Positions 39,401 through 39,856 of a DNA stretch of 64,000 nucleotides are shown here, one piece after another. Position numbers and translations under genes: made by a program. This DNA comes from Shigella phage KRT47. The DNA lies in sequence record MN781580; one strand, 5' to 3'. Every line of letters starts with the position of its first letter. Position 1 is the stretch's first letter. The notes under the pieces were generated by a model. That model had not been told where the DNA came from and did no database searches. It worked only from the letters and a program-made list of their open reading frames with translations.

Positions 39401-39856
39401 TTATTTTAAATCGTCTGCCCAATCGAGTTTAAGAGGCTCTTTGTATTCACGATCTAATACGACCGGAATTTGTACATCACCGCTAAATGATAAGGGTCCA
39501 ACATTATAAGACAATGTTATATGCGGTGTGTAATCATCAAAATCATGTGTAGCACCTAGTGCCCGCGCATACATGTGTCGACAGCGCAGATATTCAGAAT
39601 CTAGCACAAGTACAAGAGTCGATCCATCTTGTGTTTTCCATACTTCTAAATGTCCAGAAGAAGCTACTTCAAAACTTCCACTCGATGGAACATACGGAAC
39701 ATTTACTCTTGAATAACATATGGTCGAATGAATTTTTTCTCTAGGAACTGGATTAGGAACACGTAAAGAGCGCTGAAGTTCTTCCAGCGCATCAAGTGTT
39801 AATTCTGAAAACTTAGCTGCTACATAAAGACCCGTTGAAAAGTCTTTAAATTCCAT
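39401..39856 (-). CDS. 57B: 2H-phosphoesterase-fold protein gp57B (anti-CBASS nuclease Acb1 family)
   Basis: 151 aa; two H-x-T motifs (HSTI and HITL); position upstream of 57A. Confidence 0.8.

Follow-up and report, generated by a model that had tools for sequence, protein, structure and literature searches.

Does a small open reading frame with two HxT motifs, lying next to the tail-fibre chaperone gene 57A of a T4-like phage, encode the anti-CBASS enzyme Acb1, and do its chromosomal neighbours also act against host defences? The question was raised by the window, by which we mean the whole stretch of 64,000 nucleotides of Shigella phage KRT47 DNA (MN781580) that was analysed. A sequence-only reading had taken the frame for gp57B, an Acb1-type phosphodiesterase with an established function, and had regarded the interval at 39-40 kb, including an internal-protein-like gene and a small membrane protein, as an anti-defence neighbourhood.

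Results

Motifs and identity of the 57B product

The frame and the parts of it relevant for catalysis and ligand binding are as follows.

39401..39856, minus strand: coding sequence of acb1 (gene 57B), a single ORF with ATG start, 151 aa plus stop
39722..39730, minus strand: first catalytic HxT, H43-S44-T45 (T4 H44/T46), from translation and alignment
39515..39523, minus strand: second catalytic HxT, H112-I113-T114 (T4 H113/T115), from translation and alignment
39404..39427, minus strand: C-terminal lid, residues 144-151, LDWADDLK (T4 145-152), with the stacking residue W146 (T4 W147)

Both the coordinates of the frame and its HST (residues 43-45) and HIT (residues 112-114) motifs agree exactly with those first read from the letters. 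The motifs stand in the contexts K-I-H43-S-T45-I and P-H112-I-T114-L, and the distance from H43 to H112 is 69 residues. The protein contains five histidines, and at least two HxT motifs occur in 2.2% of its composition-preserving shuffles. Two HxT motifs alone are weak, suggestive evidence, and it is homology that decides the identity of this protein.

The window protein is identical to T4 gp57B/Acb1 (NP_049750.1, RefSeq NC_000866) in all 151 residues (100%), which bears out the proposal that gp57B is Acb1, an anti-CBASS phosphodiesterase of 2H type carrying two HxT motifs. The same 100% identity at the protein level was found for the copies of T4 strain 147, ime09 and Bas37 (Bas37_0262). The T4 protein is annotated with one additional N-terminal methionine, so that residue n of the window protein corresponds to T4 residue n+1. 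Search against Pfam returned the family PF23474 Acb1 ("Anti-CBASS protein Acb1") with a score of 202.7 bits (cut-off 27, E = 2.6e-60), residues 8-149 being aligned to positions 1-144 of the 144-position profile, that is, over its full length. Among solved structures, Acb1 entries 7t26/7t27 match residues 8-148 (E = 4.1e-62, 68% identity, 141 of the 151 residues aligned). The more distant structure 9q2g aligns its two HxT motifs with the HxT pair of the window protein.

Membership in the 2H phosphoesterase fold follows by homology, namely from the 68% identity to crystal structure 7t26. A single-sequence AlphaFold2 model of the window protein was too poor to use (mean pLDDT 37.8, pTM 0.30); since this model is uninformative, it is the solved structure that supports the fold.

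In the phage collection, 1470 records carry a homologue of 57B, which in 498 cases shares at least 99% identity with the window protein at the amino acid level. We aligned ten sequences, those of the window, RB69 57B, Krischvirus, Tulanevirus, Lazarusvirus, Pseudotevenvirus, Schizotequatrovirus, Slopekvirus, Salicola phage SCTP-2 and FBB1, whose identity to the window protein ranges from 86% down to 32%. Eight of them come from genera of Straboviridae, the other two being the unclassified SCTP-2 (with a genome of 440 kb) and Erwinia phage FBB1. H43, T45, H112 and T114 are invariant in all ten. Loss of the catalytic histidines on alignment had been named beforehand as the observation that would speak against Acb1; both histidines, and both threonines with them, are retained.

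The window copy of acb1 differs from five other Tequatrovirus copies in 1, 4, 4, 7 and 12 nucleotides; all of these differences are synonymous and nearly all fall on third positions. This pattern indicates that the gene is intact and under strong purifying selection. Taken together, we consider it virtually certain, judging from homology, that the frame is acb1 (gene 57B) of a T4-like Tequatrovirus and that its product, identical to T4 Acb1, is a small single-domain enzyme of 2H fold.

Published properties of the identical protein

The gene, its structure, mechanism and phenotype are already known from work of 2022 on a sequence-identical protein; the view of its function as an established one is therefore right (Hobbs et al. 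2022, PMC9117128). Activity-guided fractionation traced the 3'3'-cGAMP-degrading activity present in infected cells to T4 57B (PMC9117128). Its product adopts the 2H phosphoesterase fold with H44, T46, H113 and T115 as active-site tetrad, and the H44A/H113A mutant is catalytically dead (PMC9117128). Residues Y12, W74, F107 and W147 of T4 Acb1 stack on bases, adenine N6 is read by E141, and, in the structure of FBB1 Acb1, the C-terminal lid (T4 residues 145-152) closes on the bound ligand (PMC9117128). T4 Acb1 that lacks residues 145-152 shows no activity in a Panoptes activator assay (10.1101/2025.08.21.671373). All five ligand-contacting positions are occupied by the same residues in the window protein, as Y11, W73, F106, E140 and W146.

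Acb1 cleaves adenine-containing 3'-5' cyclic di- and trinucleotides in a metal-independent manner. Rings of more than three bases, such as cA4, are not accommodated, and the 2'-5' bond of 3'2'-cGAMP is not cleavable (PMC9117128). The enzyme prevents activation of the CBASS effectors Cap5, Cap4 and CapV, and, on a host with type III CBASS, improves P1 plating by about 1.5 log (PMC9117128). T4 deleted for acb1 grows normally without CBASS and is impaired more than 300-fold when active CBASS is present; Acb1 activity is seen about 15 min into infection (PMC9117128). According to the independent transposon study of the HIDEN-SEQ preprint, 57B/acb1 is dispensable on K-12, insertions in it being depleted only on a CBASS-expressing host. 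For T4 Acb1, the literature thus demonstrates the substrates, the mechanism, and that the enzyme is both needed and sufficient to counter CBASS; all of this is expected to apply to the window protein through its identical sequence.

Gene order and expression signals

Over 38100-41500 (3.4 kb), the window shares 98.9% identity with the Tequatrovirus ime09, an Escherichia phage. The features around acb1 are the following.

40098..40811, minus strand: gene 1, dNMP kinase (Pfam PF21448, E = 5e-104)
39856..40098, minus strand: gene 57A, tail-fibre assembly chaperone (Pfam PF17594 GP57, E = 5e-51)
39359..39387, minus strand: promoter-like site, TTTACA, 17-nt spacer, TACTAT, with TG; consensus match in the gap that separates the acb1 stop from the Ip5 start
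39071..39328, minus strand: Ip5, internal head protein at the polymorphic ipI locus (phrog_3499, E = 1e-49)
39029-39057, minus strand: near-identical promoter-like site, preceded by TG; consensus match just upstream of the trna.4 homologue
38815..39000, minus strand: trna.4 homologue, small membrane protein of 61 aa
37025..38042, minus strand: tRNA cluster of 11 genes

Read along the minus strand, the order is gene 3, gene 1, 57A, 57B/acb1, Ip5, the trna.4, trna.3 and trna.2 homologues and the tRNA cluster. The frame had been placed upstream of 57A. This is correct in plus-strand coordinates only; in the sense of transcription, acb1 lies immediately downstream of 57A. The order 1-57A-57B is common to the window, T4, ime09, RB69, Krischvirus, Tulanevirus and Pseudotevenvirus. 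In the Lazarusvirus and Schizotequatrovirus records, the gene upstream of the 57B homologue is annotated only as hypothetical protein.

Genes 1, 57A and 57B are tightly packed. The stop codon of gene 1 overlaps the start of 57A, and that of 57A overlaps the ATG of acb1 by one shared base, both junctions reading TAATG. Such packing leaves no space immediately before acb1 for a separate promoter, and we infer that the gene is expressed in the window phage as part of the 1-57A-57B string. A T4 late-promoter-type motif, TATAAATA, occurs within gene 1 at 40454-40461 (minus strand), some 360 nt ahead of the start of 57A. This motif could serve as a source of late transcription for 57A and acb1; over the whole window it was found 14 times against 10.7 expected, showing no excess over chance.

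The two promoter-like sites listed above would, if real, provide Ip5 and the trna.4 homologue each with its own start signal. A scan for promoters and terminators over 38000-41600 returned sites no more numerous than in shuffled sequence.

The junction of 57A and 57B (39854-39860, minus strand) differs between the window and T4, GAA TAATGG in the former and GAA TGATGG in the latter, where two ATGs stand in tandem. As TAATG removes the upstream ATG, Acb1 of the window starts at the second methionine and has 151 instead of the annotated 152 residues. In ime09, 57B is likewise annotated as the 151-aa form. Comparison of the junctions suggests that the second ATG may be the true acb1 start in T4 too.

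Several further features were noted in this part of the window. The tRNA cluster (37025-38042, minus strand) comprises genes for Arg, His, Asn, Tyr, Met, Thr, Ser, Pro, Gly, Leu and Gln tRNAs, and no ORF of segB size was found within it. At its tRNA locus, T4 has eight tRNAs, including Ile, with the homing endonuclease gene segB inside, and the ime09 record annotates nine. A trna.3-type ORF at 38430-38852 (minus strand), 140 aa as called, opens with TTG. The lengths of its homologues (384 nt in ime09, 411 nt for T4 trna.3) and a PHROG match covering residues 14-140 point to a probable start at an internal ATG (MYKVYADY...), giving a protein of about 127 aa.

Ip5 and the neighbourhood of acb1

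The gene following acb1 encodes a protein of 85 aa that agrees in every residue (100% identity) with RB15 Ip5 and with Bas37_0261. Its N-terminus, MKTFKEFATKTTITE, aligns with that of T4 IPI in 14 of 26 residues, and no other part of the two proteins aligns. Ip5 thereby has both the capsid-targeting sequence (MKTxxEF...) and the ipI location of T4-type internal proteins. The ipI locus is a documented hotspot of injected inhibitors of type IV restriction, as described in the HIDEN-SEQ preprint and in other literature. In T4, Ip1, Ip2 and Ip3 inhibit one distinct GmrSD each, and the preprint reports that Bas37_0260, encoded at the ipI locus, blocks McrBC.

We considered whether the internal-protein gene of the window might be the McrBC inhibitor bas37_0260 and rejected this; the gene equals bas37_0261, and bas37_0260 shares with it the first 11 residues only. 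Beyond matches to the capsid-targeting sequence, no counterpart of bas37_0260 was found in the window.

Four further ORFs of the window, all on the minus strand, open with the internal-protein capsid-targeting sequence: 29845-30318, 30335-30652, 35105-35668 and 35794-36267, with the N-termini MKTYQEFITEA, MKTYKEFIAES, MKTYAEFLTEA and MKSYAQFLNEA, respectively. Two of the four adjoin the lysozyme gene e, the site of ipII/ipIII in T4, and the other pair is flanked by the e.x genes and the tRNA cluster. Counting Ip5, the candidate injected proteins of the window number at least five, as judged from their N-termini.

Transposon insertion data for Bas37 (accession MZ501089) allow a view of these genes on two hosts. 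They were taken from the supplement of the HIDEN-SEQ preprint, specifically from its first resampling sheet, in which E. coli CFT073 is compared with K-12.

bas37_0261, identical to Ip5: log2FC -2.09, q = 0, about 4-fold depleted on CFT073 relative to K-12
bas37_0262, identical to Acb1: log2FC -1.56, q = 0.003, about 3-fold depleted on CFT073 relative to K-12
bas37_0259, trna.4 homologue (matched by position and length, not by sequence): log2FC 0.06, not significant

These values, drawn from that one sheet, hint that Ip5 and perhaps Acb1 matter on the uropathogenic strain CFT073; the acb1 insertions could be polar on Ip5. In the passages of the preprint's main text that were consulted, Ip5 and acb1 are not discussed with regard to CFT073. 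For this strain, the table of selected defence systems in the preprint gives SanaTA only and no CBASS, the table being a selection and not a full list.

One could imagine that Ip5 is injected to inhibit a defence of CFT073, such as type IV restriction of GmrSD type, or that Acb1 counters an unrecognised cyclic-nucleotide pathway of that strain. We regard this as rather unlikely. Were it correct, 57B and its neighbour Ip5 would constitute a real anti-defence pair.

The proposed anti-defence neighbourhood at 39-40 kb is thus partly supported. It is plausible for Ip5, a candidate by virtue of its place in the ipI anti-restriction hotspot, and unsupported for the 61-aa membrane protein, whose Bas37 counterpart tolerates insertions equally on CFT073 and K-12 in the sheet cited. 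Genes 57A and 1 fall outside it, their roles being in morphogenesis and nucleotide metabolism, respectively.

Discussion

Other targets and the RNA ligase label

Our results identify the window frame as acb1, and two further readings of its function have to be weighed. According to the first, the chemistry is the same and it is the main natural substrate that differs: instead of the CBASS signal, Acb1 would chiefly destroy cA3 of type III CRISPR or a signal of some other pathway, with Panoptes activation as the cost. T4 Acb1 does degrade cA3 as well as 2'3'-c-di-AMP, and Hobbs et al. noted that cleavage of cAAA may counter type III CRISPR (PMC9117128). Because it acts on these two additional nucleotides, phages with an intact acb1 are restricted by Panoptes. 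This was observed for the Acb1-encoding phages Bas35-37, which are restricted by these decoy-nucleotide systems and escape from them by inactivating or mutating acb1; the Bas37 copy is identical to that of the window. The roughly 3-fold depletion of Bas37 acb1 insertions on CFT073, for which the preprint's table of selected systems lists no CBASS, could be read in the same direction. However, that depletion may reflect polarity on the neighbouring gene Ip5, itself depleted, and the table is not a complete list of CFT073 defences. Moreover, cA4 is not cleaved by Acb1 (PMC9117128), whereas the CBASS phenotype of acb1 was demonstrated directly (PMC9117128, and the HIDEN-SEQ preprint). A main target outside CBASS therefore seems improbable to us, and this reading complements the anti-CBASS role more than it rivals it.

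The second reading, that 57B is a LigT-like 2'-5' RNA ligase or a 2',3'-cyclic phosphodiesterase of RNA repair acting on RNA ends, may be set aside as very nearly excluded: LigT does belong to the same 2H superfamily as 57B, PHROG phrog_755 is described as "RNA ligase" and the RefSeq records of T4, ime09 and RB69 label 57B likewise, but a Pfam scan at E <= 0.01 returned the Acb1 family only, with no match to LigT or 2'-5' RNA ligase families, the identical protein has published cyclic-oligonucleotide cleavage and a CBASS-specific phenotype, T4 without acb1 grows normally where CBASS is lacking (PMC9117128), and behind the label, which is a homology-based annotation, we found no assay.

The label evidently arose from membership of 57B in the 2H/LigT-like superfamily. 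Most database records of 57B still read "RNA ligase" or "hypothetical protein", and only a few recent ones "anti-CBASS protein Acb1". The outdated name, carried also by RefSeq T4 and phrog_755, is being propagated through hundreds of phage genomes; as an older label, it does not speak against Acb1.

Proposed mechanism

Returning to Acb1 as an anti-CBASS enzyme, its action in the window phage may be envisaged as follows. During infection, Acb1 would bind second messengers made by CD-NTases, such as 3'3'-cGAMP, cUA, cAAA and cAAG. The aromatic residues Y11, W73, F106 and W146 would stack on the bases, E140 would read adenine N6, and the C-terminal lid would enclose the ligand. The tetrad H43/T45/H112/T114 would then perform metal-independent acid-base catalysis, in which the 2'-OH of adenosine attacks the 3'-5' phosphodiester, giving a 2',3'-cyclic phosphate intermediate and subsequently a linear 3'-phosphate product. 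With the signal destroyed, CBASS effectors (Cap5, Cap4, CapV and similar) would stay off, and the cell would consequently not commit abortive-infection suicide, so that the phage could complete its cycle. A phage with intact acb1 is expected to be resistant to many CBASS systems and, at the same time, vulnerable to guard systems of Panoptes type.

Comparison with known systems

The closest known system is T4 Acb1 itself (NP_049750.1; Hobbs et al. 2022, Nature 605:522). It shares with the window protein the sequence, the position after genes 1-57A, the catalytic tetrad, the ligand contacts and the lid. Differences are confined to the additional annotated N-terminal methionine, the TGATG junction in place of TAATG, four synonymous nucleotide differences within the gene and the downstream neighbour, which is ipI in T4 and Ip5 in the window.

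FBB1 Acb1 (PDB 7T26 without ligand, 7T27 with 3'3'-cGAMP) has the same HxT/HxT tetrad and C-terminal lid. It comes from another phage and host, and it carries F in place of W73 and Y in place of F106, both positions thus remaining aromatic. More distant is 2H PDE-9 (PDB 9Q2G, deposited as "Anti-CBASS protein Acb1"; 10.1101/2025.08.21.671373). It belongs, like Acb1, to the group of viral 2H phosphodiesterases and degrades 3'3'-cGAMP, but its sequence match to the window protein is weak (E = 0.004) and its lid is N-terminal instead of C-terminal. Panoptes is triggered by T4 Acb1 but not by 2H PDE-9, since the latter cleaves 2'3'-c-di-AMP poorly (10.1101/2025.08.21.671373).

Apyc1 (anti-Pycsar), poxins and phage ring nucleases are, like Acb1, viral enzymes that destroy a cyclic-nucleotide immune signal of the host (PMC9117128). 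Their folds and chemistry are nevertheless unrelated to those of Acb1; Apyc1, for instance, has a metallo-beta-lactamase fold with two Zn and acts on cCMP/cUMP (PMC9117128). Finally, the cellular 2H phosphoesterases LigT and 2'-5' RNA ligase share with Acb1 the superfamily and the two HxT/S motifs. LigT acts on RNA ends, while the substrate of Acb1 is a cyclic oligonucleotide signal.
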